Positions 9,796 through 29,520 of a stretch of 64,000 bases of DNA are shown piece by piece (within the stretch, counting starts at the first letter, position 1; every line of letters begins with the position of its first letter). The DNA is taken from contig CAWEPI010000014.1 in assembly GCA_963810945.1 (NCBI GenBank), positions 174,308 through 238,307 of the forward strand, written 5' to 3'. The notes below the pieces were generated by a model that searched no databases, was not told the origin of the DNA, and was given only the letters and a program-made list of their open reading frames with translations. A program made the position numbers and the translations under genes. This DNA is from an uncultured Actinomycetes bacterium. Its GTDB lineage: Bacteria > Actinomycetota > UBA4738 > HRBIN12.

Positions 9796-10806
9796 TTGAT
9801 CGTCGATGCACACAGCCACATCCTCAGCCTCGCCGAGGATCCGGAGTTCACCCTCGCCTACGGACGCGAGGGATCGCTCTGCATCTATCGATCGATGGGA
9901 CTCCTGCCGTCGCATCGCATGCCCACCGACGACGAGTGGGAGGCAAGCGGGTACACGCGCAAGGGGTGGCCGGTGATCGGCCCCGAGGAGTCGCTCCGCG
10001 ACCACCCGGGGTTCGACAAGGTCGTCGTCCTCGCGATCTCGCCGCAGATCCTCGAAGGGCGCCTCATCGGCACCGTGGATCCCACGGACCTGTTGGGCAT
10101 CGGCGGACCGAAGGATCCGGAGCGCTGCAACGACACGATCGCCGGGGTCGTGCGCGCGGTCCCCGAGCGGTTCATCGGGTTCGCCTCGGTGAACCCCGCG
10201 TACCGGGGCGTCGAGGCCGCCGTGGAGGAGCTCGAGCGGGCCGTGACCGACCTCGGCCTCGCCGGGCTGAAGCTCTACCCGATGTATCAGCACTGGGCCG
10301 CCAACGACCCCGAGCTCGCGTTCCCCATCTACGCGAAGGCCCAGGAGCTCGGGATCCCCGTGATGATCCACCAAGCCGGCTCCACGAGGATCGACGCGAA
10401 GCTGGAGCTGGGTCGCCCGGCCCTGCTGGACGACATCGGGCGCGCGTTCCGCGACCTCCGCGTGATCATCGCGCACTGCGGTCTCCCCTGGGTGGACGAA
10501 GCCCTGTTCCTGCTCACCAAGCACCCGAACTTCTTCGCGGAGCTCTCCTACCTGATCGCGACGCTCACGCGGCGCGACCTGTTCCTCCTCCTCTCGCGAT
10601 GCGAGCCGATGTTCGTCCCGCTCGAGAAGCTCTTCTTCGGCACGGACTACCCGGGCTTCCTCTACGACCCGGTCGGGCTGCGCGAGAAGCTGATGACCGT
10701 GAACGAGGAGGCGGATGCTCTCCGGATGGAGCCGATCGCCCAGCGGAAGCTCGACGGGATCATGGGCGACAACGTCGCGCGGGTCCTCGGCCTGGTCGAC
10801 GCCTAG
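9796..10806 (+). CDS. Amidohydrolase_2 family metalloenzyme (decarboxylase/hydratase-type)
   Basis: IVDAHSH, GLKLYP, PVMIH, IIAHCGLP, FGTDYP; GGAGGT SD before TTG 9796. Confidence 0.85.
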   Translation: MIVDAHSHILSLAEDPEFTLAYGREGSLCIYRSMGLLPSHRMPTDDEWEASGYTRKGWPVIGPEESLRDHPGFDKVVVLAISPQILEGRLIGTVDPTDLLGIGGPKDPERCNDTIAGVVRAVPERFIGFASVNPAYRGVEAAVEELERAVTDLGLAGLKLYPMYQHWAANDPELAFPIYAKAQELGIPVMIHQAGSTRIDAKLELGRPALLDDIGRAFRDLRVIIAHCGLPWVDEALFLLTKHPNFFAELSYLIATLTRRDLFLLLSRCEPMFVPLEKLFFGTDYPGFLYDPVGLREKLMTVNEEADALRMEPIAQRKLDGIMGDNVARVLGLVDA

Positions 10807-12380
10807 GCCGGCGGTGTCCGCGGGTTGTAGAGATAGGCGGGCTCCACGGGCGTGTCGTACCAGCGCCGGTAGAACTCGATCACGTAGGGCTCGACGAGCC
10901 GCCCCAGCTCCGTCCAGCGCTGCACGTGCCCGGGAAGCCGATAGATCCTGCGCTGCACCGCTTCCGCGAATCGCTCCTTCAGCGCGTCCTCGTCCACCAC
11001 GGTGATCCGGCCGCCCTCCATCAGGACGCGTCCGTGCGCCATCACCGTGTCGATGTCCCCCGCGTCGGCGCGATCGAGGACCACATCGAGGAAGGGCTCG
11101 GCGTCATAGCGGCCCGGCGGGAACGTGATGCGGCTCCTGTCCAGGATCAGCAGATCGGCGTAGCGCCCCGCCTCGAGGCTCCCCAACCGGTCCTCCATGC
11201 CGAGCGCGCGCGCGCCGTTCTCGGCAGCCGCGCGCAGCACGGCCTCGCTGTCCAGCCGCTGCCGCTCGAACACCGTCGGCGTCCGCTGCAGGTAGCAGGC
11301 GAGGCGGAGCTCCTGGAGGAAGTCCTCGCGATCGGAGAAGGAGATGCCGTCGGTACCGAACGCGATGCGACCGCCCGCGTCCATGATGTCGCGCACGCGG
11401 CAGATCCCGGAGGACAGGCGGAGGTTGGATCCAGGGTCGTTCGACGCCACCGCGCCGGAATCGGCGAAGATCGCGAGCTCCTCGTCGGTGACCCAGACGA
11501 AGTGCTCCAGCACCGTGCGCGGGCCGAGCACGCCGAGGTCCGCGAGGCGGCGCAGCCCCGGCTTCCCGTGGTGCTCGAGGTTGAACATCATCTCGGCGCG
11601 CGTCTCGAGCGCGTGGGTGATCATCCCCGTGTCGCGTTCGTCGGCCTCACGCCGCGCGCGCCGGTACAGGTCGTCGGAGCACGCGGGGGTCCAGTCGGGA
11701 GCCGTGACGATCCGGATGCGGTCATCACGGCCGTGCCAGTCGGCGTGCAGACGCGCGAACGAAGCCATCACGTCGTCCACCGGCCAGGCATAGCCCATCG
11801 GCGAGGCCCGGATCTCCTCGGCCAGCGCCGTGGGCAGGCCGGCCAGGAACCGCTCGTTCGGCTCGTGCACGTAGATGTTCTCGTCACGACTCACCAACCC
11901 GAACGCGGTGCGCATCCCGGCGTCCTCGTACGCGCGCAGCGCCGACGGCGCGCCGAACTCGGTCATCCCCGGGCGGCCGTAGTACATGTCCACCGTGGAG
12001 GTCTGCCCTCCCTTGATGGCGTTCACCAGGCCCCACAGCACTCCGGTGTAGAGGTCCTCCTCCTCGATATCGCCGACCGCGCCTTGCATGAAGACGTTCG
12101 CCCGCTCGAAGATGAACTGGTAGAGGCCGGGCCCGATCGCGAGCTCGCAGTGGTAGTGGCAATTGATGAAGCCGGGCATCACGAAGTGCGACGCCGAACC
12201 CAGGACGCGATCGAAGGGCCCGAGACGCTCGAGTTCCTCGCGTGGCCCCGCGGCCACGATCGTCGGCCCCTCCACGACCAGCGCGCCGTCGGGGATCAGC
12301 GTCTGCGCACCCAGCGCCACCACCGGGTCGCCGAGGACCAGCGTGCGCCCGGCCTCTTGCGTGCCCACCGGCTCAGCCAC
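10803..12380 (-). CDS. Amidohydrolase, MTA/SAH/cytosine/pterin deaminase-like (COG0402-type)
   Basis: PGFINCHYH, HALETRAE (HxxE), EHFVW, FGTDG, GSLEAGRYADL. Confidence 0.85.
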   Translation of the reverse strand: MAEPVGTQEAGRTLVLGDPVVALGAQTLIPDGALVVEGPTIVAAGPREELERLGPFDRVLGSASHFVMPGFINCHYHCELAIGPGLYQFIFERANVFMQGAVGDIEEEDLYTGVLWGLVNAIKGGQTSTVDMYYGRPGMTEFGAPSALRAYEDAGMRTAFGLVSRDENIYVHEPNERFLAGLPTALAEEIRASPMGYAWPVDDVMASFARLHADWHGRDDRIRIVTAPDWTPACSDDLYRRARREADERDTGMITHALETRAEMMFNLEHHGKPGLRRLADLGVLGPRTVLEHFVWVTDEELAIFADSGAVASNDPGSNLRLSSGICRVRDIMDAGGRIAFGTDGISFSDREDFLQELRLACYLQRTPTVFERQRLDSEAVLRAAAENGARALGMEDRLGSLEAGRYADLLILDRSRITFPPGRYDAEPFLDVVLDRADAGDIDTVMAHGRVLMEGGRITVVDEDALKERFAEAVQRRIYRLPGHVQRWTELGRLVEPYVIEFYRRWYDTPVEPAYLYNPRTPPA

Positions 12381-12389
12381 GCCGACGGA

Positions 12390-13715
12390 TCAGGTGGGAA
12401 CCACCATGCGGTCGAGGACGCTCAGGAACGCCTCGTTCGCGTGATGGAGCACCTCGGGCTCGTCGATCGTCGTGAATGCGCGGTCACGGTAGACGATCCG
12501 GCCGTCGATGATCGTGGTGTTCACCGCGCTGCCGTTCGCCGCGAAGACGAGGTGCGAGTACAGGTGCGCCTTGGACTCGGGGTGCAGCGGCGTGAACATC
12601 TGGTTCTGCAGGTCCACGAGGATCACGTCGGCCTTCTTGCCGGCCGTGAGCTCGCCGGTCTCGTGGCCCAGGGCGGCCGATCCGTTCCGCGTGGCCATGC
12701 GCACCACGTCGGGCGCCTGCTGCAGGCTCGGGTCCACGCGGCTCGCGCGATGGATCAGCGACGCGAACTTCATCACCTCGAACAGGTCACGGCTGTTGTT
12801 GCACTCCGCGGCGTCGTGCCCGAGCCCGACGTTGATCCCCGCGGCGAGCATCTCCGGCACGCGCGCGATCCCGTTTCCGAGCTTGGCGTTCGACGACGGG
12901 TTGTGGGAGATCTGCGTCCCGGTCTCGCGCATCAACGCGATCTCGGCATCGGACAGCCAGACGCAGTGCGCCGCGATGCAGCGGTCGAACAGGATGCCAC
13001 AGTCGTAGGCCACCTCGGTCGGACGCCGTCCGAACCGCTCCTTGGAGTTCTCCACCTCGGTGAGGGACTCGTTCAGGTGGATGTGGATCCCGGTGCCGAG
13101 GTCGTCGGCGAGCATGCGGGCTTCCTTCAGGAGGCCCTCGGAGGCGAGCGGGAGCCACTCGATCCCGATGTACACCTCGATGCGTCCGTCGGCCTTGCCG
13201 TTCGAGGCTTCGAACTCGGCCTTGTTGATCTCCAGGGTGTCGAGGTCGTGCTCGTCGTCGGCCACGTCGTTGGAGAGCACGGCCCGGATGCCGATCTCCT
13301 CCGCGGCGCGGGCGAGCCCGCCGAGCTGGCGATACATGTCGTTGACCGTCGTCACCCCGCACTTGATCGACTCGCTGTAGCTCGCGAGCGCGGCCCAGTA
13401 GGCCTCCTCAGGGTTCAGCGCACGGATGATGGGGTACCAGCACGTCTCGAGGTACTCCCACAGGGGAAGGTGATCGCTCCACCCCTTGCCCACCGCCGTG
13501 TGGAAGTGCAGGTCGACGAGTCCGGGGAGCACCGCCTTGCCCTCGGCCTCGATCACCGTGGCCCCGTCGGCGCTCTGGCGCGTCGCCACCTCGGCGTCGG
13601 GGCCCACGTCCACGATGCGGTCGCCCTCGATCACCACGGTGCCGCCGAAGATCATCTCGTCGGCGTCGTTCATCGTGACGATGGTGCCGTTCCTGATGAA
13701 GATGCGATCGCTCAC
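12390..13715 (-). CDS. Amidohydrolase, MTA/SAH/cytosine deaminase-like (COG0402-type)
   Basis: PGLVDLHFH, HIHLNES (HxxE), AHCVWL, HNPSSNAKL, GHDAA, GKKADV. Confidence 0.88.
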   Translation of the reverse strand: MSDRIFIRNGTIVTMNDADEMIFGGTVVIEGDRIVDVGPDAEVATRQSADGATVIEAEGKAVLPGLVDLHFHTAVGKGWSDHLPLWEYLETCWYPIIRALNPEEAYWAALASYSESIKCGVTTVNDMYRQLGGLARAAEEIGIRAVLSNDVADDEHDLDTLEINKAEFEASNGKADGRIEVYIGIEWLPLASEGLLKEARMLADDLGTGIHIHLNESLTEVENSKERFGRRPTEVAYDCGILFDRCIAAHCVWLSDAEIALMRETGTQISHNPSSNAKLGNGIARVPEMLAAGINVGLGHDAAECNNSRDLFEVMKFASLIHRASRVDPSLQQAPDVVRMATRNGSAALGHETGELTAGKKADVILVDLQNQMFTPLHPESKAHLYSHLVFAANGSAVNTTIIDGRIVYRDRAFTTIDEPEVLHHANEAFLSVLDRMVVPT

Positions 13716-13743: not shown

Positions 13744-15252
13744 TCAGCGGGAGATGCCCTGTCCGGATTGCGGTACCGCCGATGTCAGGTCCACCCAGAT
13801 CGACTTCGATTGGAGGTAGGGCTCGAGCGCCTCGGCGCCGAGCTCGCGCCCGAACCCCGAATGCTTGCGACCGCCGAAGGGGACGGCCACGTCGAACATG
13901 CCGTAGGTGTTGATCCAGACCGTGCCCGCCTGCAGGTCGTCGGCGAGGCGCAGCGCCTTGGCGGTGTCGCTCGACCAGATCCCGGCGGCCAACCCGAAGT
14001 CGACGCCGTTGGCGAGCCGGCGCAGCTCGTCCTCGTCCTCCCACGTGATCACGGAGAGCACGGGCCCGAAGATCTCCTCCTGTGCCACCCGCATGTCGTT
14101 GCGCACGCCCGCGATCACCGTGGGCTGCAAGAAGAATCCCTCCTCCAGTCCTTCGACGGATGCCTCCGAGCCACCGGCCGCGACCTCGGCGCCCTCCTCG
14201 GTGGCCGACGCGACGTAGCCGAGGACCCGGCGCCGGTGCGGCGCGGAGATCAGCGGTCCCATCTGGGTCTGCGGATCGAGGCCGTGGCCGAGCCGGAGCT
14301 GGTTCGCCTGCTCGGACAGGTGCCCCACGAGCTCGTCGGCGACGGGCTTCTCCACGAACAATCGCGAGCCCGCCACGCACGCCTGCCCCTGGTTGAAGAA
14401 CGCGCCGCCGAAGGCGCCGCTCGCGGCTGCCTCCAGGTTCGCATCGGCGAACACGATGTTGGGGCTCTTGCCGCCCAGCTCCAGGGTCACGCGCTTCAAC
14501 CCGTCGATCGACGCGCGCATGATCTCCTTGCCCGTGGCCGTCTGACCGGTGAAGGCGATCTTGCTGACGCCGGGGTGGCGCACGAGGGCCTCCCCCACGT
14601 CCGGCCCACCGATCACGACGTTCACGACGCCCGGCGGGAAGCCGGCCTCGTCGATCAGATCCATCAGACGCAGGGTGGAGAGCGGCGCCAACTCCGAGGG
14701 CTTCACCACCACCGTGCATCCGGCGGCGAGCGCCGGGCCGAGCTTGTACGCCACCTCGAGCAGCGGGAAGTTCCACGGCGTGATGGCCGCCACCACGCCT
14801 ACGGGCTCGCGCTTGCCGAGGGTGAGCATCCCCGGGATCGAGTTGGGCAGGACGTCGCCGGTCAGCTTGGTGGTCCAGCCCGCGTAGTAGCGGAACAGCT
14901 CGATCGTGAGCGCGACGTCGACGGCCTCCGCCTCCCACATCGGCTTGCCGTTGTCGAGGACTTCGATCGTCGCGAACTCGTCCTTGTTGGCCTCCAGGAG
15001 GTCCGCGAGGCCCCACAACAGACGCGCGCGCTGCGTCGGCGGAACCGAGCGCCACGTCTCGAACGCACGGCCGGCGGCCTCCACGGCCGCGTCGACCTCG
15101 TGGCCGGTCGCGAGGGGCGCCAACGCGAGCGTCCGGCCGGTCGCCGGGTTGATCGAGGCGAGCGACCCCTCGGTCTCGACGTAGGCCCCGTCGATGTAGA
15201 GGCGCAGCGGCTTCTCGAGGAACGCGATCGTCGGTTCGGTGACGGTGGGCAT
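13744..15252 (-). CDS. NAD(P)-dependent aldehyde dehydrogenase
   Basis: ITPWNFP, KPSE, FTGQTATG, LELGGKSP, FNQGQAC, EEIFGP, PFGG. Confidence 0.93.
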   Translation of the reverse strand: MPTVTEPTIAFLEKPLRLYIDGAYVETEGSLASINPATGRTLALAPLATGHEVDAAVEAAGRAFETWRSVPPTQRARLLWGLADLLEANKDEFATIEVLDNGKPMWEAEAVDVALTIELFRYYAGWTTKLTGDVLPNSIPGMLTLGKREPVGVVAAITPWNFPLLEVAYKLGPALAAGCTVVVKPSELAPLSTLRLMDLIDEAGFPPGVVNVVIGGPDVGEALVRHPGVSKIAFTGQTATGKEIMRASIDGLKRVTLELGGKSPNIVFADANLEAAASGAFGGAFFNQGQACVAGSRLFVEKPVADELVGHLSEQANQLRLGHGLDPQTQMGPLISAPHRRRVLGYVASATEEGAEVAAGGSEASVEGLEEGFFLQPTVIAGVRNDMRVAQEEIFGPVLSVITWEDEDELRRLANGVDFGLAAGIWSSDTAKALRLADDLQAGTVWINTYGMFDVAVPFGGRKHSGFGRELGAEALEPYLQSKSIWVDLTSAVPQSGQGISR

Positions 15253-15282: not shown

Positions 15283-16308
15283 TCAGGCGATCTCGAGGAC
15301 CTGGCGACCGAGGACCCCGCGTTGACGCAGGGCCGCGAGCGCGTCGGAGACGCCGTCGAGGGGGAACGCGCCAGCGATCGGGACCGTCATGGCTCCGGCC
15401 GCGGAGAGCGCCATCGCGTCCTGCAGGTCCAGTCGGGTGGCCGCGACGGTGGAGATGAAGGAGGACTCCGGCAGGATGAACTCGATCGGGTGGATCTCGA
15501 GCTGTTGGTCCGTATACCCGGTCGAGACGAACCTCCCGCCCTTGGCGAGCGCACGGATGCCCGCCGCCATCGATCCGGTCGTCCCCACCAGCTCGAAGAA
15601 GACGTCGGTGCCGCGACCGTCGGTGAGCCCCCGCACGCCGCCGGCGAGGTCCTCGTACGCCTCCGGCGTCGGCACGAGGAGCCCGTCGCTCGCCCCGTGG
15701 TCGCGCGCGAGCTGCAGCTTCTCCTCCGCGTCGGCCACGGCGATCACGCGCGCTCCCGCATGCGCCGCCGCCTGCACCACGAGGATGCCGACGCCGCCGA
15801 TGCCGTCCACCACGGCGGTGTCGCCGATCCGCAGGTTCGACAGCTTCGTGGCGTGCATCGCGGTCATCCCGGCGCAGGTGAGCACCGCCGCGGTCGCGAA
15901 GTCCACGCCGTCGGGGATCGCGACCGCGTTCTGCTCGGGGATCACCACGTAGTCCGCGTCGCCGCCGTCGCGGTTGAAGCCCAGCTGGTCGGCCTCGTTG
16001 TCGCAGATGTTCTGGCGGCCCTTCAGGCACTGCTCGCAGTGCCCGCAGAAGATCTTGTTGTAGATCGCCACACGGTCGCCCGCACGCAAGCCCACGCCCT
16101 CACCCGCTGCTTCCACCACGCCCGCCGCCTCGTGGCCGAGCGTCATCGGGTAGGGGTCGGGCTTGATCATCCCGTCGAGGATGTGCAGGTCGGTGCCGCA
16201 GACGCCGGCGGCGTGGATGCGCACCAGCACCTCGCCCCTGCCCGGCTCGGGGGTATCGACGTCGTCGAGTCGAAGGGTGAGGTCCTCGTGGATCCGGGCT
16301 GCCTGCAT
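15283..16308 (-). CDS. Zn-dependent alcohol dehydrogenase
   Basis: GVCGTD, GHEAAG, CGHCEQC...C, DGIGGVG; AAGGAG SD before ATG 16308. Confidence 0.9.
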   Translation of the reverse strand: MQAARIHEDLTLRLDDVDTPEPGRGEVLVRIHAAGVCGTDLHILDGMIKPDPYPMTLGHEAAGVVEAAGEGVGLRAGDRVAIYNKIFCGHCEQCLKGRQNICDNEADQLGFNRDGGDADYVVIPEQNAVAIPDGVDFATAAVLTCAGMTAMHATKLSNLRIGDTAVVDGIGGVGILVVQAAAHAGARVIAVADAEEKLQLARDHGASDGLLVPTPEAYEDLAGGVRGLTDGRGTDVFFELVGTTGSMAAGIRALAKGGRFVSTGYTDQQLEIHPIEFILPESSFISTVAATRLDLQDAMALSAAGAMTVPIAGAFPLDGVSDALAALRQRGVLGRQVLEIA

Positions 16309-16321
16309 GTCTCGACGCTCC

Positions 16322-17020
16322 TTACCGCTCCGGGCGCGGTTCACCCCGGCTCGGGGCCCCGTACGCCATGTCCCAGAATGCCACCTCGTACTCCGTCGAA
16401 CGCTCGAAGATGGTCGCCAGGGTCGCCATCTGCGCGGCGTCGTGGACGTCGGCCACCCGGTCCAGCAGGGCCGTGGAATCCTCGACGAGGCGGTCGTACT
16501 CGTCGTTGCCGAACATCGCGATCCAGTCGGCGTAGATCGGGTCCTCCGGCGGATGCGCCATCAGGGGCCGCGCGAGCTCGCCGTAGCTCCACTGGCAGGG
16601 CAGGACCGCCGTGAGCCCCGCGGCGCAGTCCCCCTGTGCGCAGGTCGCGAGCAGATGCCGCGTGTACGCGTACGTGGTCGGGAGCATCGAGTCCTCCTCG
16701 CCGAGCGCCGCTTGATCGCCGCCGAGGCGCTCGAGGAAGGCCAGGTTCGCCGGGATCTCGTTGCGCACGATCTGGTCCAGGAACCGCGTGAGGGTCGCGA
16801 TCCCCTCGCGATCCGGAGCCTTCGCCACGATGATCGCGATCGCGCGGGCGTAGTCCTGCAGGTAGAGGACGTTCTGCTCGAAGTACCGACGGAAGGTCGC
16901 ATGCGGCAGCGAACCGTCCGCGATCGCCTCGACCATGGGATGACCGGTGGCGCGCTCCCACACACGCGCGCCGGACTCGTGGAGCACCCGAGAGACGTGC
17001 TCGGACCGAGTCTCCAACAT
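16322..17020 (-). CDS. tenA: TenA family thiaminase II / aminopyrimidine aminohydrolase, variant with Asn at the conserved Asp
   Basis: HPMV..IADGSL, FEQNVLYL (usually QD..YL), LPCQWSY catalytic Cys, YEVAFWDMAY; start uncertain. Confidence 0.85.
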   Translation of the reverse strand: MLETRSEHVSRVLHESGARVWERATGHPMVEAIADGSLPHATFRRYFEQNVLYLQDYARAIAIIVAKAPDREGIATLTRFLDQIVRNEIPANLAFLERLGGDQAALGEEDSMLPTTYAYTRHLLATCAQGDCAAGLTAVLPCQWSYGELARPLMAHPPEDPIYADWIAMFGNDEYDRLVEDSTALLDRVADVHDAAQMATLATIFERSTEYEVAFWDMAYGAPSRGEPRPER

Positions 17021-17027
17021 AATGCGC

Positions 17028-17779: not shown

Positions 17780-17801
17780 GACGACCCCTTCCAGCGAACG
17801 A

Positions 17802-18230: not shown

Positions 18231-18281
18231 CGCATCCCTATCCATCCGCCCGCCCGTCCCTCGTCCGGCTCGGGGTGCATT

Positions 18282-21625: not shown

Positions 21626-23226
21626 CACGGGTCGGGCTCCCGGAACTCCCCGAAGACCCCGCGGAACACGTCGGTCATCTCGCCCACGGTCGCGCCGGCG
21701 CGGGCGGCCACGACCAGCGGCGGCATCACGTTGCCGCCGCTGCGCGCGACCTCGTCGAGCGCGGTGAGCGCCTCGGCGTGAGCCCGGGGATCGCGGGCGG
21801 CCACGCGCGCCGCGGTGCGCGCGATCTGCCGCTCGACGATGCCCTCGTCCAGCCGGAACGACGCGGGTGCCGGCGCATCCGCGCCGTGAGCGTCGGCATG
21901 GACGTTCACGCCGACCTTGGGGCGGATGCCCTGCGCGATCTCTCGTTCGGTGCGATACGCGGATTCCGCGATCCAACGCTGGGGCACGCCTCGCTCGATC
22001 GCCGCCACCGCGCCGCCCAGCCCTTCCACCTCTGCGAGCACGGCGCCGGCCGCCGCCTCGATGTCGTCGGTCAGGCGCTCCACGAAGTACGACCCGGCGA
22101 GCGGGTCCGCGGTGCGCGCCACGCCGGACTCGAGCCCGATGATCTGCTGGGTGCGCAGGGAGAGCGTCACCGCCTCTTCCGATGGGATCTCGTACGCCTC
22201 GTCGTAGCCCATCACGTGGATCGACTGCGCCCCGCCGAGGACGGCGCCGAGGCACTGCAGGGTCGAGCGCACGATGTTGTTGAGCGGCTGTTGGGCCGTG
22301 AGCGTCGTCCCGGAATTGCCGGAGAAGAAGCGGAGGCGCCCCGAGCGCGGGTCGGTGGCGCCGAATCGCTCCGTGGCGATCCTGAACCACATCCGCCGGG
22401 CCGCGCGGAGCTTCGCCACCTCCTCGAACAGATCGAGCGTGGTCGCGAAGTGGAACGAGAGCCGGGGGGCGAAGCCGTCGAAGTCCATCCCGCGCGCGAT
22501 CAGCGCCTCGGCGTACGCGATCGCGGAGGCCATCGTGAGCGCGAGCTCCTGCACGGCGTCGCATCCGGCCTCGCGAGCGTGGTAGCCCGTGATCGAGATG
22601 GGGTTGAACCGCGGCAGATGCTCGGTCGCGAACGCGATCACGTCGCACGACAGCCGCATGGACGGTCCGGGCGGGAAGATGAAGGTCTTGCGCGCGAGGA
22701 ACTCTTTGAGGATGTCGTTCTGCAGGGTGCCGGCGAGCCGCTCGTACCCGATGCCCTGACGCTCCGCCGCCACCAGATACGTGGCGAGGATGATGGGCGC
22801 GGTCGCGTTGATCGTGAAGTTCACGGAGACGTCGCCGAGCCCCAGCCCCTCGAAGAGGTCCACCATGTCCTCGGCCGTATCGATCGCGACGCCCACGCGG
22901 CCCACCTCCGCGCGGGCCCGCTCGTGGGAGGAGTCGTAGCCGAGCTGGGTCGGCAGGTCGAATGCGACCGAGAGCGCGGTCTGGCCTCGCTCGAGGAGGA
23001 ACCGGTAGCGGGCGTTCGTCTCCTCCGGTGACCCGAAGCCCGCGAACTGCCGCATCGTCCAGAGTTGCCCCCGGTACATGCTCGGATAGGGTCCCCGCGT
23101 GAACGGGGGCTCGCCGGGCAGGCCCAAGCGTCCCTCGAGCCCCTCCTCGACGTCGGTCGCCGTGTACACGGCTTCGACCGGCAATCCGGAGTCGGTGGTG
23201 ATCCGACCGCGCGGCTCCTCGTTCAA
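21622..23226 (-). CDS. B12-dependent acyl-CoA mutase, substrate-binding (large) subunit; divergent methylmalonyl/isobutyryl-CoA mutase family
   Basis: PGEPPFTRGPY, WTMRQFAGF, SVAFDLPTQLGYDS, QNDILKEFLAR, ISITGYH, EEVAKLRAARRMW, DPLAGSYFVE. Confidence 0.93.
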   Translation of the reverse strand: MNEEPRGRITTDSGLPVEAVYTATDVEEGLEGRLGLPGEPPFTRGPYPSMYRGQLWTMRQFAGFGSPEETNARYRFLLERGQTALSVAFDLPTQLGYDSSHERARAEVGRVGVAIDTAEDMVDLFEGLGLGDVSVNFTINATAPIILATYLVAAERQGIGYERLAGTLQNDILKEFLARKTFIFPPGPSMRLSCDVIAFATEHLPRFNPISITGYHAREAGCDAVQELALTMASAIAYAEALIARGMDFDGFAPRLSFHFATTLDLFEEVAKLRAARRMWFRIATERFGATDPRSGRLRFFSGNSGTTLTAQQPLNNIVRSTLQCLGAVLGGAQSIHVMGYDEAYEIPSEEAVTLSLRTQQIIGLESGVARTADPLAGSYFVERLTDDIEAAAGAVLAEVEGLGGAVAAIERGVPQRWIAESAYRTEREIAQGIRPKVGVNVHADAHGADAPAPASFRLDEGIVERQIARTAARVAARDPRAHAEALTALDEVARSGGNVMPPLVVAARAGATVGEMTDVFRGVFGEFREPDPW

Positions 23227-23630
23227 CGCACCTCCTGGGTCCGGGCGGCGAGGGCCAGCACGCCGTCGACCACCTCGAGGAGGTTGGTGCCGACCGGGAA
23301 GACCGCCGCCACGCCGAGCGCGCGCAACGCCTCGGCGTCGTCCGCGGGGATCGTCCCGCCCAGCACGACGGGGACGTCGTGGAGCCCGCGGGCCTCGCGT
23401 TCACGCAGGAGGTCAGCCGCAAGCTCGAGGTGGGCGCCCGAGAGCACGGAGATCCCGATCACGTCGGCGTCGTCGTCGGCCGCCGCCCGCACGATCTCCG
23501 CCACGCTGCGCCGCAGGCCGAGGTAGATCACCTCGGCGCCGGCGTCGCGCAGCGCCATCGCGATCACCTTGACGCCGCGGTCGTGCCCGTCCAGGCCCGG
23601 CTTGGCCAGGACGACCCGCGGCGGTCTCAC
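23223..23630 (-). CDS. Cobalamin-binding (small) subunit of acyl-CoA mutase
   Basis: KPGLDGHDRG (DxHxxG), SVLSGAH, LGGTIP. Confidence 0.93.
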   Translation of the reverse strand: MRPPRVVLAKPGLDGHDRGVKVIAMALRDAGAEVIYLGLRRSVAEIVRAAADDDADVIGISVLSGAHLELAADLLREREARGLHDVPVVLGGTIPADDAEALRALGVAAVFPVGTNLLEVVDGVLALAARTQEVR

Positions 23631-24592
23631 ACGAGCTCCCCCGCCACCATCACCGGGCGGCCATCGACCTCGAGCGTGGCGTCACGCATCACGCAATCGA
23701 GGTGCGCCACGGCATCCACGACCCCGCCGTAGGCGATGGAGTTCCCGAGTGCGATGTGCGCGGTGCCGCGTGCCGACTCCGTCTCCATCGCCACGCCGCA
23801 CACGCGCCCCGATGGGTTGAAGGCCATCGACACCTCGGCCACGTTGCGCATCCGTTCGTCTGCGCAGCGCGCGAGCATCTCCTCCAGCCGCCCCGCCTCC
23901 GCGCCGTCGAGGCCCACCATCTCACCGTCGGCGACGTGGATCGCGACCGGCTCGGGCAAGGGCCCCTGCCCCATGAACAGCAGATCCGCATCCACGATGA
24001 CCACGCCGGTCGTGGTCCCCTCCACCGGCGCCGTACCCGCCTCGATGTCCGGGGGCGCCATGTACGCGCCGTCCTCGCGCGCCAGGCCGTGCAGCACGCG
24101 CCCGGGGCGCCCTGCCACGGATCCGCTGAGGTCGGTGCCACCGGGCGTCGTGAGGTGGAACCGTTCGGCGTCGCCCCAGGCCCGCCCGATCCGCTCGGCG
24201 TCGGACCGGATCGCGTCGAAGTCGACCGTGAGCGGGCCGTCGTCGCGGAAGGTCTCGAGGCGCACGCCCGGCATCGCGAGGTACCGCACGCCGGCTCGCG
24301 TGGCGCGCTGCCGCGCCGCGCTCGAACCGATGAACAGGCTCGTGAGCTCGATCACCGCGCCGGCCTCGCGCATCATCGCCGCCACCGCGCTCGGCGGCTC
24401 CGAACCCGGGAGCAGCGGCACGGGCATGCGCGCGAGGACCGGGGTGGCGCCGCGCCGCGCGATGCCCTCCTCCAACCCGGCGACCACGGCGCCGTCGGTG
24501 CCCTCGTCCGTCAGCAGCACCACCTGCTCGCCCGCGCGCACCGCGAGGCAGCGATCCAGGAGGTTGTCGAAGCCCGCCTCCGCCGCGGTCAC
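23627..24592 (-). CDS. M29 / aminopeptidase T-like metallohydrolase (same fold family as NicX)
   Basis: TPGGTDL, PPDIEAGTAPVEG, NVAEVSMAFNP, E..RGTAHIALGNS..GG...HLD; GTG start 2 nt after upstream stop. Confidence 0.7.
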   Translation of the reverse strand: MTAAEAGFDNLLDRCLAVRAGEQVVLLTDEGTDGAVVAGLEEGIARRGATPVLARMPVPLLPGSEPPSAVAAMMREAGAVIELTSLFIGSSAARQRATRAGVRYLAMPGVRLETFRDDGPLTVDFDAIRSDAERIGRAWGDAERFHLTTPGGTDLSGSVAGRPGRVLHGLAREDGAYMAPPDIEAGTAPVEGTTTGVVIVDADLLFMGQGPLPEPVAIHVADGEMVGLDGAEAGRLEEMLARCADERMRNVAEVSMAFNPSGRVCGVAMETESARGTAHIALGNSIAYGGVVDAVAHLDCVMRDATLEVDGRPVMVAGELV

Positions 24593-24594
24593 CG

Positions 24595-25806
24595 CTACCC
24601 CGCGGCGGGCTCCGAGAGGGCGAGGGCGGCGAAGGCCGCGTAGACCTTGGTCGCCTCGTGGATCTCCTCGACCGTCAGATGCTCGTCGGGGCAGTACACG
24701 GGTGGCCCGCCGGGCCCGAAGATCACGGTCGGCACCTTCTCGCCGAAGCTGGCGGTGTCCCCCAACCAGTTCTCGACCCGCAGGCCAGGCTCGGTGCCGC
24801 GGACCTCGCGCACCGCCGTGCGCATCAGGCGCACGACCTCGTCCTCGGGATCCGCCAGGTACCCGCTCTTCACGTCGGCGAGCACGACCTCGGCGCGCAC
24901 ACGCGGGTCCGCCTCCTGGGCGCGCGCGAGGCATCGGTCGATCTCCGCGCGGACCTGCTCGATGCTCACGCCCGGCTGCGGACGGCAGTCGACGCGGATC
25001 ACGCACTCGTCCGGGATCATCGAAGGACCGCCGGGGGCCAGACCTCCGTAGATCCGGCCGGGCACCACGTAGGTCTCCGGACCGAACAGCTCGACGACCC
25101 AGGGCTCGAGCTGTGGCTCGTACTTCGACGCATCGAGCGCGAGCACGGCCTGGGCGGCCAGGACGTTCGCGTTGATCGCGACCGGCTTGTGACACGTGTG
25201 CGCGGAGCGACCGAGCGTGGTCACGTCGAAGTAGTAACGACCTCGGTGCCCGAGACAGACCTCGTTGTCGGTGAGCTCGCCCAGCACGCAGAGGTCTGCG
25301 TCGTGCTCGTCGAAGTAGGCGATGGACCCGAGCTGGTCGCCCATGTGATCGGAGACGGCCGCCATCGCGAGGGTGCCGGTGAGCGGCAGGCCGCTCGAGC
25401 GCACCCCCTCGATCGCCACGATCTGGCAGACGAGCGCGGCCTTCATATCCATGACACCGTGCCCGTACACGGACCCGTCGATCAGGGCGCCCGAGAACGG
25501 CTCGGTGACCTCCCATCCGTGGGAGACGGGCTTGGTGTCCATGTGTCCCGTCATCACGATGCGCCGCCCGGGCCCGAGGCGCACCTCGCCGATCGCGTTG
25601 GGCCGCTCAGGCAAGACGGGCTGCAGGGCGACCTCGTCGAACCCGGAGTCGCGCATGACCGACGCGAGGTACTCGGCGAGGGGGCCCTCGTCCCCGAGGA
25701 CGCTCGGGATCCGGCACACCTCTCGTACGAGCTCCACCGCCCGGTCGAGGTCGAGGCGCCCGAGCACCTGCTCCGTGACCTCGCTGGTTCCGGTGCCCAC
25801 GTCCAT
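24595..25806 (-). CDS. M20 ArgE/DapE-like deacylase (YlmB-like candidate)
   Basis: GHMDT, YGHGVMDMK, GRSAH, GDTASF, FGPG; the usual DEE reads DHM, so catalytic residues are altered. Confidence 0.85.
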   Translation of the reverse strand: MDVGTGTSEVTEQVLGRLDLDRAVELVREVCRIPSVLGDEGPLAEYLASVMRDSGFDEVALQPVLPERPNAIGEVRLGPGRRIVMTGHMDTKPVSHGWEVTEPFSGALIDGSVYGHGVMDMKAALVCQIVAIEGVRSSGLPLTGTLAMAAVSDHMGDQLGSIAYFDEHDADLCVLGELTDNEVCLGHRGRYYFDVTTLGRSAHTCHKPVAINANVLAAQAVLALDASKYEPQLEPWVVELFGPETYVVPGRIYGGLAPGGPSMIPDECVIRVDCRPQPGVSIEQVRAEIDRCLARAQEADPRVRAEVVLADVKSGYLADPEDEVVRLMRTAVREVRGTEPGLRVENWLGDTASFGEKVPTVIFGPGGPPVYCPDEHLTVEEIHEATKVYAAFAALALSEPAAG

Positions 25807-25921: not shown

Positions 25922-26989
25922 TCACGAACAGCTGTAGGGCATGTACTGATCGGTGGAGATCGCCGCCGCGTCGGGCGTCGACTTGATCAGACCGTTCGTC
26001 TTCATCCAGTCCCCGTAGCTCTGCCAAGCGGCGGAGTCGATGCAGCCCGTCTTCGTGCCGGCCGCCGGCTTCAGGAGCGTCAACGTGTACGGGACGCTCG
26101 CGTCGAGGAACTTGGCGTCGTACTGCGTGACGTCCTTCATGACGGCGGTGGCGCCTGCCGGATCGGCGATCGCCCCGTCCGTCCCCTTGATCAGGGCCGC
26201 CACGAAGCGCGTCACGGCGTCGGCGTACGCAGGGTCGCTCGACAGCTTGTCGGCGTTGGCGGCCACGATCAGCTCGGCGTAGTTCGGCACGCCCAACTCG
26301 TTGGCCGGGTACACGGTGGGCTTCTTGCCGGTCTCCTGCTCGACCTGGATGGCTTCCACGTTCTGGTACCCGCCGATGATGGCGTCGACCTTGTTCGACA
26401 GGAGCGACTGAACGAGGTTGAAGCCGACGTTGACCTTCGTGACGTCGCTCGCGCTCACGCCGGCCGTCGTCAGCATCGAGTTGTAGATGTCGTCGTCGCT
26501 CGGGAGGCCGGTGACCCCCACGGACTTCCCCGAGATCTGAGAGAGGTCGCTCATCGGGACGTCCGGAGAGACGATCAACGAGTTCAGCGGCACCGGGACG
26601 ACGGTCGCCACGGACATGACCGGCAGCCCGCTCTCCTGCCCGTAGAACATGCCGGACTCGTAGAAGATCGCGAGGTCGACCTTGTTCAGGCCGACGAGCT
26701 TGATCGGATCCGCGGCGGTCGCCGGGGCCTGGAAGCTCACCGTGAGGTTCTCGTCGGCGAAGTACCCCTTGTCCTGCGCGTAGTAGAGGCCCACGTGGTC
26801 CGGATTGGGCGTCCAGTCGAGCTCGACCTTCAGATCGGCCGGAGCGCTCGATGCCCCCGAGCCGCCCGCCGACGCGCTCGAGGACGAACCCCCGCTGTCG
26901 TTGCCGTTGCTGCACGCCGCGGCCACCAGCGCGAGGCACGTGAGCGCCGCGAGTACCGCGAGTTTCCGCTTGAGACCCGATCGGTCCAT
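25922..26989 (-). CDS. ABC transporter substrate-binding lipoprotein, NMT1/THI5 (ThiY-like)
   Basis: Lipobox VAAAC; LDWTPNPDHVGLYYAQDKGYF, VNVGFNL, GGYQNVE, GVPNYAEL. Confidence 0.88.
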   Translation of the reverse strand: MDRSGLKRKLAVLAALTCLALVAAACSNGNDSGGSSSSASAGGSGASSAPADLKVELDWTPNPDHVGLYYAQDKGYFADENLTVSFQAPATAADPIKLVGLNKVDLAIFYESGMFYGQESGLPVMSVATVVPVPLNSLIVSPDVPMSDLSQISGKSVGVTGLPSDDDIYNSMLTTAGVSASDVTKVNVGFNLVQSLLSNKVDAIIGGYQNVEAIQVEQETGKKPTVYPANELGVPNYAELIVAANADKLSSDPAYADAVTRFVAALIKGTDGAIADPAGATAVMKDVTQYDAKFLDASVPYTLTLLKPAAGTKTGCIDSAAWQSYGDWMKTNGLIKSTPDAAAISTDQYMPYSCS

Positions 26990-27065
26990 CTCGACCGTCC
27001 TTTCATCCGCCCGGCTCGTGGGGACCCACGCGCCTCCCTCCGATGGCACCGCGCCCTTGCGAGCC

Positions 27066-27914
27066 CTACATCGCATTCCCCCTCGGCGCCCAGGGGACGA
27101 GGATCCGCTCCAGCAGCGAGACCAGCGCGAACAACGCCATCGCGATCAGGGTGAGGATCAAGATCGCGGCGAAGATGCGCGCGGTCTGCAGGTTCGGCGT
27201 GGCCTGCAGCATCACGAACCCCAAGCCGGCGCTCGCGCCCGACCATTCCCCGAACACGGCCCCGATCGCGGCGAACGTCGCCGCGATCCGCATGCCCGAG
27301 AAGATCGCCGGCAGCGCGGCGGGGAACTCGATGCGCCGGAAGATCGCCCAGCGCCCCGCGTCGAGCGTCTTCATCATGTGGATGAAGTCGTCGTCGACCG
27401 AGCGGAGGCCGTCCAGGCCGTTCACGACGATGGGGAAGAAGCAGATGAGCGCGACGATCACCAGCTTCGGCAGGATCCCGTAGCCGAGCACGATGACGAG
27501 GATCGGCGCGAGCACGACGATCGGGATCGTCTGCGATCCGATCAGGAGCGGATACACCGCGCGACGGAGCGGCCCGAACATGTGCAGGACGATCGCGAGC
27601 CCCACGCCCGCCACCGCCGCGATCACGAAGCCGATCACGATCTCACGCAGGGAGACCCACATCGCCGGCGCGAGGATGCTCGACCAATCGTCGCGCAGCG
27701 CCACCGCCACCTGCGACGGCGCGGGGAAGAGGTACTTCGGGACGTGGAACCCGCGGATGATCGCCTCCCACAACGCGATCATGATCAGGGTGAACAGCGC
27801 CGCGAGCCCGTACGCGCGCCAGAGGCGCTTCAGGCGGCCCGGTTTGCGCACCGGCGTCACCTCGGCCGAGGGTGCCTCCTGCGCGGCCGGCTCCACCGGC
27901 ACCTTCGTGCTCAC
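27066..27914 (-). CDS. ABC transporter permease (ThiX/SsuC-like)
   Basis: FPAPSQV, QTIPIVVLAP, FFPIVVN..DGL, PAALPAIFSGMR, GAVFGEW. Confidence 0.9.
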   Translation of the reverse strand: MSTKVPVEPAAQEAPSAEVTPVRKPGRLKRLWRAYGLAALFTLIMIALWEAIIRGFHVPKYLFPAPSQVAVALRDDWSSILAPAMWVSLREIVIGFVIAAVAGVGLAIVLHMFGPLRRAVYPLLIGSQTIPIVVLAPILVIVLGYGILPKLVIVALICFFPIVVNGLDGLRSVDDDFIHMMKTLDAGRWAIFRRIEFPAALPAIFSGMRIAATFAAIGAVFGEWSGASAGLGFVMLQATPNLQTARIFAAILILTLIAMALFALVSLLERILVPWAPRGNAM

Positions 27915-28711
27915 TCGATGGCCTCCAGGGCCTGCTCCTTGAGCGCGACGAACGCGGGGCTCGTGACGATCTCGCGACGGGACTCGCCGGTGGTCTCGAG
28001 GTCTGTCTCCAAGACCTTCAGGACGCGTCCGGGACGCGCGGACATGACCACGACCGTCTTGCTCAACAAGATCGCCTCCTCGACGTCGTGGGTCACGAGG
28101 AGCACCGTCCGCGGAACATCGCCGAGGGCGCGCAGCAGCCATTCCTGCATCTGCGCGCGGGTGATCGAGTCCAGGGCGCCGAAGGGCTCGTCGAGCAGGA
28201 GGACGTCCTTCTCTGCCATGAGGGTCCGGAGGAAGCTCACGCGCTGACGCATGCCCCCGGAGAGCTGCGCGGGACGCACGCCCTCGAACTCGGCGAGACC
28301 GAAGTGCTCGAAGTAGGGGCGCGTCTTCTCGCGTGCCGCGTCGCGGGAGACGCCCCGGTTCTGCATCGCGATGATCGCGTTGTCGAGCGCGGTGCGCCAC
28401 GGGAGCAGGAGGTCGCGCTGCGGCATCATCGCGCAGCGCGCGAGCCGCCCCCGGGGATCGGTGGCCCCCTCGACGTTCACGACTCCGCTGTCGGGCTCGA
28501 GGAGACCCGCGCAGAGCTGGAGGAGGGTCGACTTGCCGCCACCGCTCGGACCCACGATGCCGATCCTGGAGTGCCGCTCGATCTCGAACGTCACGCCGTC
28601 GAGCGCCACCACCTCGCCGAAGGTCTTCCGGATCGCATGGAACGAGATGCCGACCGAGTCGTCCGCTGGGTTCGGCGCGGCCGCCGCGTCACGCACTGCA
28701 CCCTGCCCCAA
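27911..28711 (-). CDS. ABC transporter ATP-binding protein (ThiZ/SsuB-like)
   Basis: GPSGGGKST, LSGGMRQR, LLLDEPFGALD, VTHD. Confidence 0.92.
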   Translation of the reverse strand: MGQGAVRDAAAAPNPADDSVGISFHAIRKTFGEVVALDGVTFEIERHSRIGIVGPSGGGKSTLLQLCAGLLEPDSGVVNVEGATDPRGRLARCAMMPQRDLLLPWRTALDNAIIAMQNRGVSRDAAREKTRPYFEHFGLAEFEGVRPAQLSGGMRQRVSFLRTLMAEKDVLLLDEPFGALDSITRAQMQEWLLRALGDVPRTVLLVTHDVEEAILLSKTVVVMSARPGRVLKVLETDLETTGESRREIVTSPAFVALKEQALEAIE

Positions 28712-28726: not shown

Positions 28727-28795
28727 GGATTATCTGATATTCCAGGCATCGAATCTTGAGGCGCGACTGTAGCAACGGGCCTCCGGAGCGGTCAA
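28727..28795 (-). promoter_or_regulatory. Putative promoter of the ABC importer with downstream palindromic operator
   Basis: Minus strand TTGACC-N18-TACAGT; imperfect 17-bp palindrome GGATTATCTGATATTCC at 28727-28743. Confidence 0.6.
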
Positions 28796-28818
28796 GGCAA
28801 GGCGCACCGGGGCGCCCT

Positions 28819-29520
28819 TCACGCGGGCTGCAGATCCGGCCACTGTTCCATCGTGTACGCCATCTCCCAGAACCCCCGCTCGAGCCGGGAGCTGGTGGCG
28901 AAGATCTCGCCGAGCTCGGCGCGCTTGGCCGACCCCACGCCTTCCTCCGAGGCGAGGCGATCGAAGTCGCGCCGCATCGCTGCCACCATCTCCACGTTCA
29001 CGGGAAGCGTGAAGTAGCCGATCCAATCCGCGTACACCTCGTGCTGCGACGTCGCCTTCGCCGCTAGGCGCTGGGCGATCTCCACGTAGCTCCACGCGCA
29101 CGGCAAGAGCGCCGCCATGATCTCGAGCGGCCCGCCGCGCAACGCGAGCGCCTGCAGGTAACTGGTGTAGGCCACGTTCGCCGGGGCCATCGTGGCGGCG
29201 CCACCCCGGTCGGCCGCCCCCATCTCGGTCACGCGCGCGAGCAGCGCGCGGTTGCTCGGCAGCTCGGCATCGATCACCTGGTTCAGGTCGACCATGAAGT
29301 ACCGGAGCTCGGTTTCGTCGCGCGACTTCGCGGCGCCCATCGCGAGGCAGCGCGCGTAGTCCACGAGGTAGAAGTTGTCCTGTTCCAGGAAGAAGCGGAA
29401 CTTCTCGAGCGCCAGGGTGCCCGACGCGAGCTCGCGGAGGAACGGATGCGCGTGCAGCCCGTCCCAGATGCCCGCGCTCGCGACGCGCATCTCGTCACAG
29501 ATCGATGCGTCGGTGCCCAT
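28819..29520 (-). CDS. tenA: TenA family thiaminase II (canonical Asp/Cys/Glu type)
   Basis: HPFLREL..GTL, FLEQDNFYL, LLPCAWSY, LERGFWEMAY. Confidence 0.9.
   Translation of the reverse strand: MGTDASICDEMRVASAGIWDGLHAHPFLRELASGTLALEKFRFFLEQDNFYLVDYARCLAMGAAKSRDETELRYFMVDLNQVIDAELPSNRALLARVTEMGAADRGGAATMAPANVAYTSYLQALALRGGPLEIMAALLPCAWSYVEIAQRLAAKATSQHEVYADWIGYFTLPVNVEMVAAMRRDFDRLASEEGVGSAKRAELGEIFATSSRLERGFWEMAYTMEQWPDLQPA

Follow-up and report, generated by a model that had tools for sequence, protein, structure and literature searches.

The subject of this analysis is a cluster of 19 genes that occupies positions 9796-29520 of a 64,000-nucleotide stretch of DNA from an uncultured Actinomycetes bacterium of soil (GenBank assembly GCA_963810945.1, contig CAWEPI010000014.1, positions 174,308 to 238,307), hereafter called the window. 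On the basis of gene context, we tentatively read this cluster as a substrate-induced catabolic operon for thiamine-derived 4-amino-2-methylpyrimidines, built round a conserved actinobacterial core, and give this reading a little less than an even chance. An earlier note on the same DNA had proposed that genes of the kind used for salvage of thiamine fragments here feed the breakdown of the pyrimidine moiety. This proposal gains from the co-occurrence of the genes in other genomes, the thiaminase II scores of both TenA proteins, the likeness of the binding protein to ThiY, the exchange of the importer for an NCS1 permease in some loci, the presence of a GntR regulator in a cluster without a riboswitch and the arginine retained in the mutase. 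It loses through those related loci, about half, in which the core stands without TenA, and through the host's own need for salvage.

The gene set was compiled from open reading frames (ORFs) and the GC content of codon positions. As the window has a G+C content of about 70%, third-position GC served to pick genes. Names were assigned via Pfam, NCBIfam and PDB sequence searches, and every gene family listed in the earlier note proved to be present at its place. Eighteen of the 19 genes lie on the minus strand. In the order of transcription, with the one convergent gene last, they are:

28819..29520, minus strand: TenA no. 2, canonical thiaminase II (Pfam TENA_THI-4, 4.2e-37; TIGR04306, 153.6 bits)
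27911..28711, minus strand: ABC transporter ATPase (Pfam ABC_tran, 2.4e-26), the stop of which shares 4 bp (GTGA) with the permease start
27066..27914, minus strand: ABC permease (Pfam BPD_transp_1, 3.1e-29), C-terminal part of ORF 27066-28400, with the start at 27914 deduced from the GTGA overlap
25922..27076, minus strand: ThiY-like substrate-binding lipoprotein, NMT1/THI5 fold (Pfam NMT1, 4e-53)
24595..25806, minus strand: M20a, ArgE/DapE-type deacylase (Pfam Peptidase_M20 and M20_dimer)
23627..24598, minus strand: NicX/M29-fold metalloprotein, 323 amino acids (PF26233 label of relatives; PDB 7cn3; Foldseek)
23223..23630, minus strand: B12-binding small subunit of the mutase (MutS), 135 amino acids (Pfam B12-binding, 1.1e-27)
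21622..23226, minus strand: large subunit of an acyl-CoA mutase resembling methylmalonyl-CoA mutase (MutL), 534 amino acids (Pfam MM_CoA_mutase, 5.4e-192)
20425..21625, minus strand: family III CoA-transferase, frameshifted near 21297 (Pfam CoA_transf_3, 2.1e-71, profile positions 104-366 only)
19325..20428, minus strand: M20b, second M20 hydrolase (Pfam Peptidase_M20 and M20_dimer)
18282..19328, minus strand: Mer-like F420-type luciferase-like oxidoreductase, LLM (Pfam Bac_luciferase, 6.8e-52)
17802..18245, minus strand: methylmalonyl-CoA-epimerase-like VOC protein (Pfam Glyoxalase_4, 1.3e-12)
17054..17932, minus strand: GntR/FCD transcription regulator (Pfam GntR and FCD, domains from residue 80); translation probably begins later than the ORF does
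16322..17044, minus strand: TenA no. 1, thiaminase II paralogue that has Asn in the Asp44 position (TIGR04306, 140 bits)
15283..16344, minus strand: Zn-dependent alcohol dehydrogenase, ADH (Pfam ADH_N and ADH_zinc_N)
13744..15252, minus strand: aldehyde dehydrogenase, ALDH (Pfam Aldedh, 2.4e-176; no NCBIfam equivalog cut-off reached)
12390..13715, minus strand: Amidohydro_1 of the deaminase/chlorohydrolase (TRZ-ATZ) subgroup, 441 amino acids (Pfam, 8.6e-63)
10803..12380, minus strand: Amidohydro_1 of the deaminase/chlorohydrolase (TRZ-ATZ) subgroup, 525 amino acids (Pfam, 5.2e-47)
9796..10806, plus strand: Amidohydro_2 of the decarboxylase/hydratase superfamily (Pfam, 9.8e-33), with a TTG start at 9796 behind GGAGG

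The cluster begins with an importer end (TenA no. 2 to the binding protein), continues with the genes from M20a to LLM, among which the core lies, and ends with a stretch that leads from the epimerase-like gene through the regulator, TenA no. 1 and the two dehydrogenases to the amidohydrolases. From 24598 to 19325, direct reading of the sequence revealed six successive 4-bp start/stop overlaps (GTGA, GTGA, TTGA, GTGA, ATGA, ATGA), which make M20a, the NicX-like protein, MutS, MutL, CoA-transferase, M20b and LLM one translational unit and bear out the chain of overlaps described in the earlier note. Further downstream, the reading frame for TenA no. 1, which follows the GntR gene, overlaps the start of the ADH gene. 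The Rfam gathering score was reached nowhere in the 64-kb window, and there is no riboswitch for thiamine pyrophosphate (TPP) in it. Genes for ThiD and ThiE are likewise missing from the window, both residing on another contig of the genome (C4), whereas ThiM was not searched for; the absence of a TPP riboswitch, thiD and thiE from the cluster, claimed beforehand, is therefore real. Because a GntR/FCD regulator is present, a riboswitch is missing and the genes are tightly coupled, substrate-induced catabolism is favoured over vitamin-repressed salvage.

Both TenA proteins exceed the 130-bit cut-off of the thiaminase II equivalog TIGR04306. For the catalytic residues of the family, Cys135 and Glu205 in Bacillus subtilis numbering, alignment to B. 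subtilis TenA showed that TenA no. 2 has kept the cysteine ('ALLPC') and the glutamate ('SSRLE') along with the pyrimidine-binding aspartate ('LEQD'). TenA no. 1 has also kept Cys and Glu, but carries Asn ('FEQN') in place of B. subtilis Asp44. The same dichotomy runs through the alignment of 41 TenA proteins from related clusters, where all 41 have the catalytic Cys and 39 have the Glu, while the Asp44 site is occupied by Asp in 14 and by Asn in 27. The Asn-type paralogues adjoin ADH, whereas the TenA genes beside the importer keep Asp. Judged from these alignments, the exchange of Asp44 for Asn may be a sign that the pyrimidine substrate has changed. Oxythiamine, which had been named as one such substrate in the earlier note, finds no support beyond this Asp-to-Asn change in TenA no. 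1.

The import genes, too, provide a link to thiamine pyrimidines. An NMT1-fold binding protein beside a BPD_transp_1 permease and an ABC_tran ATPase corresponds, at the level of sequence families, to the arrangement of ThiXYZ-type importers. In a PDB sequence search, the best solved relative of the binding protein was ThiY (3ix1, 8.9e-33), which binds N-formyl-4-amino-5-aminomethyl-2-methylpyrimidine (FAMP), while THI5 scored only 4.6e-19. Since the N-terminus has a signal peptide with a lipobox-like '...VAAAC', the protein is part of a transporter and not a THI5-type synthase.

The 323-residue NicX-like protein has no match in our local copies of Pfam (PF02073 included) and NCBIfam. Among its relatives the precomputed label is PF26233 'NicX' and the protein name is aminopeptidase T, and the only significant PDB sequence match is NicX itself (7cn3, 4e-5). 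Its AlphaFold model (pLDDT 89.6) retrieved NicX first in Foldseek (TM 0.77), followed by the M29 peptidases PepS, AmpS and AmpT (TM 0.56-0.69). The protein had previously been described as an M29-like hydrolase; the resemblance in fold stands, whereas the family is NicX. Residues E255, E272, E274, H281, H299 and D301 are invariant in the alignment of relatives. Of the Fe(II) ligands of NicX, His265, His318 and Asp320, the His-x-Asp pair is kept as H299 and D301, while the position of His265 is taken by E255. As a set, the invariant Glu, Glu, His, His and Asp resemble the site of a two-metal hydrolase and not the iron site of NicX, E272, E274 and H281 being likened here to the two-metal ligand set of M29 enzymes.

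M20a scores 164 bits on TIGR01910 (DapE-ArgE), which is below the cut-off, and has DapE and ArgE as PDB relatives at about 1e-19, while the NCBIfam matches of M20b, to acetylornithine deacetylase, are weak. LLM reaches no NCBIfam cut-off, and its best PDB relative is the F420-dependent methylene-tetrahydromethanopterin reductase Mer (1z69, 2.4e-43), with other F420 enzymes next; an F420 ligase is encoded in the host genome.

The best solved relatives of the large mutase subunit are HcmA (4r3u, 3.5e-148), a 2-hydroxyisobutyryl-CoA mutase (HCM), and then human methylmalonyl-CoA mutase (MCM; 4e-130). On the NCBIfam equivalog for MCM the protein scores 554 bits and thus stays under the cut-off of 876. 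Among 62 orthologs, Gln197, Arg207, Tyr243 and His244 of MCM are kept throughout, while the Tyr89 site is occupied by Phe in 44, including the protein from the window, and by Tyr in the other 18. The tyrosine in the 'TMY' of the mutase had been considered for this site and was ruled out; alignment to the Y89F mutant entry 5req places the site in 'RQ[Y/F]AGF'. Where HCM has Ile90, Asp117 and Gln208, the window protein has Phe, Ala and Arg, with Ala and Arg in all 62 orthologs. Compared with isobutyryl-CoA mutase (ICM; Phe80 and Gln198), Phe is present and Arg stands where Gln is expected. The residues at these sites therefore make the enzyme neither an HCM nor an ICM, and the retained Arg, a ligand for a carboxylate of the substrate, points to a CoA ester of the malonyl or succinyl type. 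The small subunit reaches 140.9 bits on TIGR00640 (cut-off 57.45) and has the B12 motif DGHDRG. Two other large subunits of acyl-CoA mutases are encoded on contig C4, at 1154657-1156216 (L082) and 120228-121706 (L081); one has the ICM signature (Phe and Gln) and the other is MCM-like ('WTMRQYAGM'), so that the cluster mutase is not the sole housekeeping enzyme of its kind. Pfam revealed no gene for a MeaB-type chaperone among the gene calls of the cluster, and no cobalamin riboswitch in the genome reached the cut-off (best score 30 bits versus 31.5).

The best NCBIfam models for the CoA-transferase are those for succinate-glutarate and succinyl-CoA:mesaconate CoA-transferases, the scores for both being far below the cut-offs. 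Its gene reads in two frames because of one extra base at 21297, with the N-terminal part in the other frame. This base is missing from a 955-nt DNA contig of 98% identity from an independent soil run (X1) and from contigs of the RNA libraries X15 and X16, and the orthologs are uninterrupted proteins of about 400 residues. As the near-identical contigs do not have the extra base, the break probably stems from an assembly error or from strain variation.

At the far end of the cluster, the 441-residue Amidohydro_1 has as its best PDB relatives the methylthioadenosine/S-adenosylhomocysteine deaminase 4f0r (4.5e-51), atrazine chlorohydrolase and 8-oxoguanine deaminase; 4f0r is also the best relative of the 525-residue protein (2e-48). 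The PDB relatives of the convergent Amidohydro_2 are weak (BB4693, 1e-11; ACMSD, 1.6e-8). A resemblance to iso-orotate decarboxylase was looked for, and no such match occurs among the PDB matches listed, which are BB4693, ACMSD, LigJ and LigW-type proteins.

To place the cluster in a wider context, the NicX-like protein was scanned against one genome per species, which gave 96 confirmed relatives, of which the best 80 loci were kept. Nearly all of these loci are labelled Actinomycetota (Actinomycetes and Acidimicrobiia), and eight come from cultured isolates, namely of Nocardioides, Microbacterium, Nakamurella, Herbiconiux, Acrocarpospora, Dactylosporangium, Frankia and Parafrankia. Synteny was counted by tblastn of 22 window proteins against the 80 loci, because the ORF calls of the loci are crude and contain antisense shadow ORFs (e.g. 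'F13' over the MutS region). Relatives of the core were detected in 70 loci for M20a, 67 for LLM, 66 for MutS, 65 for the CoA-transferase and 64 for MutL. The corresponding numbers for accessory genes were 50 for M20b, 46 for ADH, 45 for GntR, 41 for the epimerase-like protein and 39 for ALDH. M20a, the NicX-like protein and LLM form an invariant trio, which is usually coupled to the split MCM-like mutase and the family III CoA-transferase. According to the gene-order maps, M20b occurs only in loci that hold the mutase. As the arrangement recurs in dozens of genomes, it is not due to chance.

The flank of each locus was 10 kb, and the amidohydrolase end of window-type clusters falls outside it. 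In 10 of 12 window-type genomes tested, an ortholog of Amidohydro_2 was present 2.4-10 kb beyond the fetched locus at contiguous coordinates; the full 20 kb are therefore conserved in these genomes. In the genomes behind loci L010, L018 and L021, the Amidohydro_2 ortholog is split between frames.

Of the 80 loci, 41 have a gene of the TenA family no more than 10 kb away from that for the NicX-like protein, as do 27 of the 51 full-length loci. The latter fall into 23 with TenA and mutase, 21 with the mutase only, four with TenA only and three with neither. Co-occurrence of the mutase with the tenA/ABC genes in other genomes had been chosen beforehand as one point on which the proposal of pyrimidine catabolism should stand or fall, and the outcome is mostly favourable: both are found in 23 of the 51 loci, set against the 21 in which the mutase stands without TenA. 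In a quick tree of the loci, those with TenA are spread over several separated clades, one of them represented by the isolate Nocardioides caldifontis (L074), and the TenA proteins of distant clades are only 29-46% identical to the copies in the window. Two genomes with a low TenA score at the locus still have TenA close by. In Microbacterium one TenA gene resides inside the locus and one 4 kb outside, and in a Spongiisociaceae genome TenA genes are found 22-50 kb away. The loci of Microbacterium and Nakamurella have a TenA-like gene inside the importer operon, beside a core that lacks the mutase.

Importers and accessory enzymes define several locus types. In eight loci, an NCS1 permease of the 'cytosine/purine/uracil/thiamine/allantoin' type takes the place of the ABC genes, and ThiY-like ABC or NCS1 importers share one position, directly upstream of M20a. 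Binding proteins of the NMT1 type occur in TenA-poor locus types, too. One such type, Frankia-like, has a binding protein and amidohydrolases and lacks TenA, ADH and ALDH. Another, from Acidimicrobiia, contains ADH, ALDH and a rhodanese gene and no TenA. This two-domain rhodanese gene was seen directly upstream of M20a in seven Acidimicrobiia loci (L033, L043, L044, L046, L047, L051 and L054; e.g. L051:7862-8767), several of which come from sponge-associated bins. In the Nakamurella, Microbacterium and Herbiconiux isolates (L061, L072 and L080), a class I/II aminotransferase gene follows the NicX-like gene (e.g. L072:10956-12047) and stands in the place of mutase and CoA-transferase, so that the same pathway seems to end in another way there.

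If the cluster indeed serves catabolism, its course can be sketched from the gene families, and all steps after TenA are inferred from gene context. At the level of families, the ThiY-like lipoprotein and its ABC transporter would take up FAMP, aminomethylpyrimidine or HMP (4-amino-5-hydroxymethyl-2-methylpyrimidine), and the ArgE/DapE-type M20 enzyme together with TenA would yield HMP by the known salvage chemistry of these families. ADH and ALDH could then oxidize the C5 hydroxymethyl group of HMP to 2-methyl-4-amino-5-pyrimidinecarboxylate. In a 2024 article (PMC11223231), this compound appears among the thiamine degradation products 'formed by microbes', and its metabolic fate is given there as unknown. 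The two deaminase-type amidohydrolases would take off the ring amino group, and the Mer-like LLM would reduce the ring with F420H2. After hydrolytic ring opening, M20a might remove the acetyl or amidine unit derived from C2, and the M29/NicX-fold enzyme might cleave the remaining amide to release a branched C4 amino- or hydroxy-dicarboxylate. CoA-transferase, epimerase-like protein and the split B12 mutase would finally turn the latter into a linear C4 acyl-CoA, and the carboxylate-binding Arg kept in the mutase fits this logic of converting a branched into a linear C4 skeleton.

Several observations weigh against such a pathway and have to be set beside those that favour it. As nutrients, pyrimidines derived from thiamine are scarce. 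Both Amidohydro_1 proteins are similar to exocyclic deaminases and not to ring openers of the dihydropyrimidinase type, and neither a recognisable ring opener of that type nor an aminotransferase is found among the gene calls of the window cluster. The epimerase-like protein scores 88.5 bits on TIGR03081, under the cut-off of 114.95, with a match that begins only at residue 48. The mutase itself may, given Tyr at the Tyr89 site in 18 of the 62 aligned orthologs, be an ordinary methylmalonyl-CoA mutase. TenA is missing within 10 kb from 21 of the 44 full-length loci with the mutase, and a minimal locus type consists of nothing but NicX-like protein, M20a, MutS, MutL, CoA-transferase and LLM between unrelated flanks, with neither importer nor deaminase. 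Furthermore, a search for ThiC in 60 carrier genomes found it in only four (of the 80 loci, 21, mostly on short contigs, were left out, and L041 lies on the same contig as L042), and salvage alone would explain the presence of TenA and importer in a host that lacks ThiC and ThiG and has ThiD and ThiE.

This last point leads to the possibility that the cluster is a composite, in which TenA, the ThiY-like importer and an M20 enzyme serve salvage in an HMP auxotroph while the core, together with ADH, ALDH and the amidohydrolases, degrades a compound unrelated to thiamine, the two modules being mere neighbours. We consider this rather unlikely, and yet the host genome (3.6 Mb, 94.6% complete) supplies the main support for it. 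ThiC was not found in this genome, nor was a convincing ThiG, while ThiD, ThiE and ThiL-like genes are present, and the organism looks, from its gene content, like an auxotroph for thiamine precursors. Beyond the two TenA genes of the cluster, the genome has none. Without ThiC in the host, the cluster TenA and importer must therefore also supply HMP to ThiD. The lack of TenA in almost half of the mutase-bearing full-length loci and the 116-bp gap between the binding-protein gene and M20a also agree with a composite. Against it stands the position of TenA no. 1 inside the catabolic part, after GntR and overlapping the start of ADH, a position that recurs in window-type loci. Mere neighbourhood also sits badly with the joining of TenA-family genes to the core in several separate clades at such low identity, with the TenA-like gene in the importer operon beside the mutase-free core of Microbacterium and Nakamurella, and with the finding that importers as different as ThiY-like ABC transporters and NCS1 permeases occupy one and the same site directly upstream of M20a. 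Nor does the cluster have a TPP riboswitch, although the genome uses one for thiE: its sole TPP-riboswitch-like element lies directly before this gene on contig C4 (648781-649459; 48.6 bits versus a gathering score of 54.3). As for ThiC, it was detected in 162 of the 397 Actinomycetota genomes of high quality that were sampled (missing from 59%; detected in 98 of 253 genera), and in only one of 24 genomes of the host's own family. With baselines this low in phylum and family, the association between carriage of the cluster and absence of ThiC is confounded and may reflect kinship; loss of the pyrimidine branch appears to be widespread in uncultured lineages of Actinomycetota.

The catabolic reading of the cluster has a further competitor, which leaves the degradative character of the core untouched and changes its substrate. 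The core could degrade a common pyrimidine substituted at C5 (thymine, 5-methylcytosine or 5-hydroxymethylcytosine, for example) via methylmalonate to succinate, with TenA only widening the range of substrates. The route would comprise deamination, F420-dependent ring reduction, ring opening, cleavage of a carbamoyl-beta-amino acid by M20, and the action of CoA-transferase, epimerase and an ordinary MCM. Breakdown of thymine to methylmalonate-type acids is established biochemistry, and the amidohydrolases are of the deaminase type. The Arg at the Arg207 site in all 62 mutase orthologs and the Tyr at the Tyr89 site in 18 of them constitute the MCM signature. The resemblance of the CoA-transferase to succinyl-CoA:dicarboxylate transferases, far below cut-offs as it is, the nucleobase permease of the NCS1 family in eight loci and the replacement of the mutase by aminotransferase and ALDH in Microbacterium, Nakamurella and Herbiconiux, just as catabolism of beta-aminoisobutyrate would need, all speak for this route as well. 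Nevertheless, we regard this route as improbable. It leaves the NicX/M29-fold protein without a role, there is no dihydropyrimidinase- or dihydropyrimidine-dehydrogenase-like gene among the gene calls of the window, both TenA proteins score as thiaminase II, and the binding protein is closest to ThiY. Most of the orthologs, that of the window included, have Phe instead of Tyr89, an exchange that reportedly slows the methylmalonyl-CoA mutase of Propionibacterium shermanii strongly. A third idea reverses the direction of the pathway: the pyrimidine would be built or rebuilt from a branched C4 compound and an acetamidine-type unit, with the mutase running from succinyl-CoA to the branched ester, thus providing HMP independently of ThiC. 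The rarity of ThiC among carriers (four of 60, compared with 162 of 397 in the phylum sample) would suit such a supply, and the TenA substrate aminomethylpyrimidine is an industrial precursor of the thiamine pyrimidine. We consider it highly improbable all the same, as a kinase, an amidotransferase and an ATP-dependent ligase are all missing from the gene calls of the cluster, ALDH and amidohydrolases of the deaminase type act degradatively, importers are present in the operon, and the ThiC contrast is confounded by kinship.

The closest known counterpart of the importer end is the ThiXYZ-YlmB-TenA system of Bacillus, which Jenkins et al. are said to have described in 2007 as a salvage route for base-degraded thiamine. 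Like this system, the cluster encodes a ThiY-type binding protein with an ABC importer, an M20 enzyme of the ArgE/DapE type and a thiaminase II with catalytic Cys. Unlike it, the cluster has no TPP riboswitch, neither thiD nor thiE beside the genes, and two TenA paralogues, one with Asn at the Asp44 site. Moreover, its genes are embedded among those for ADH, ALDH, deaminases, an F420-type reductase, a CoA-transferase and a B12 mutase. The mutase shares with HcmAB and IcmAB the split into large and small subunits and the DxHxxG B12 motif of the small subunit. It differs from MCM in that 44 of 62 orthologs have Phe at the Tyr89 site, from HCM in lacking Ile90, Asp117 and Gln208, and from ICM in lacking the Gln. 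The NicX-like protein shares fold and His-x-Asp with NicX, identity amounting to only 17-18%, and departs from it in the Glu at the His265 position and in the additional E272, E274 and H281, which resemble those of the M29 enzymes AmpS, AmpT and PepS.

Two further pathways follow a comparable logic. In Eubacterium barkeri, fermentation of nicotinate reportedly involves a B12-dependent carbon-skeleton mutase in the catabolism of an N-heterocycle, and the sequence of ring reduction, opening by an amidohydrolase, oxidation of alcohol and aldehyde and B12-dependent rearrangement of a branched acid is the same as that suggested here. The E. barkeri mutase is said to differ in acting on a free acid, 2-methyleneglutarate, and in belonging to another mutase family, and the pathway reportedly comprises no CoA-transferase, TenA or F420 enzyme. 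Reductive pyrimidine catabolism combined with the methylmalonyl-CoA pathway likewise yields a branched C4 unit from C4, C5, C6 and the C5 substituent, which epimerase and mutase linearise. In contrast to this route, the cluster has an F420-type LLM and a NicX-fold protein, and no gene of the dihydropyrimidine dehydrogenase or dihydropyrimidinase type was seen in it.

All components of the cluster belong to known families, and B12 mutases are already known from the catabolism of N-heterocycles. Full-text searches of the literature outside subscription journals and supplements turned up no paper in which TenA or thiaminase II is linked to an acyl-CoA mutase, or in which genes are assigned to the breakdown of the pyrimidine ring of thiamine; the earlier note, whose author knew of no described pathway connecting TenA with such a mutase, agrees with this. 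A new mutase specificity is a real prospect here, as is a new activity in the NicX family. In its strongest form, the proposal would make the operon the first to encode complete mineralisation of the vitamin B1 pyrimidine ring. The Phe/Arg mutase clade would then have a new specificity, converting aminomethyl- or hydroxymethyl-malonyl-CoA from the opened 5-carboxypyrimidine ring into a CoA ester of the aspartyl or malyl type, and the NicX-fold protein would act in this pathway as an amidase or ring-cleaving enzyme of a new kind. We think that this strongest form is unlikely. Irrespective of it, the cluster offers a concrete and testable candidate gene set for breakdown of the thiamine pyrimidine ring, kept in at least 80 species-level genomes. 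If the catabolic reading were true, B12-dependent acyl-CoA mutases would gain a new class of substrates, an uncharacterised branch of the NicX/M29 family would gain a function and F420 would gain a role in vitamin turnover. For the vitamin economy of soil, it is of interest that the carriers are mostly pyrimidine auxotrophs, which may both need and consume thiamine fragments.

Six runs of RNA libraries cover shares of 0.09-0.16 of the stretch with contigs that are 90-95% alike. Because of this limited likeness, the contigs stem from relatives, and they give no more than a hint of transcription of the relatives' genes in soil. The libraries may contain DNA, X15 and X16 appear to be a single data set deposited two times, and none of this was taken as evidence for expression. 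The surroundings of the cluster contain genes for adenylate/guanylate cyclases, which flank it at a distance (1457-3043 and 32860-34554; one with HAMP and CHASE3), and another luciferase-like oxidoreductase is encoded at 44882-46360 of the window. Genes for a DUF1345 protein and a patatin (29627-32295) come after the cluster and are kept only in its closest relative, locus L001.

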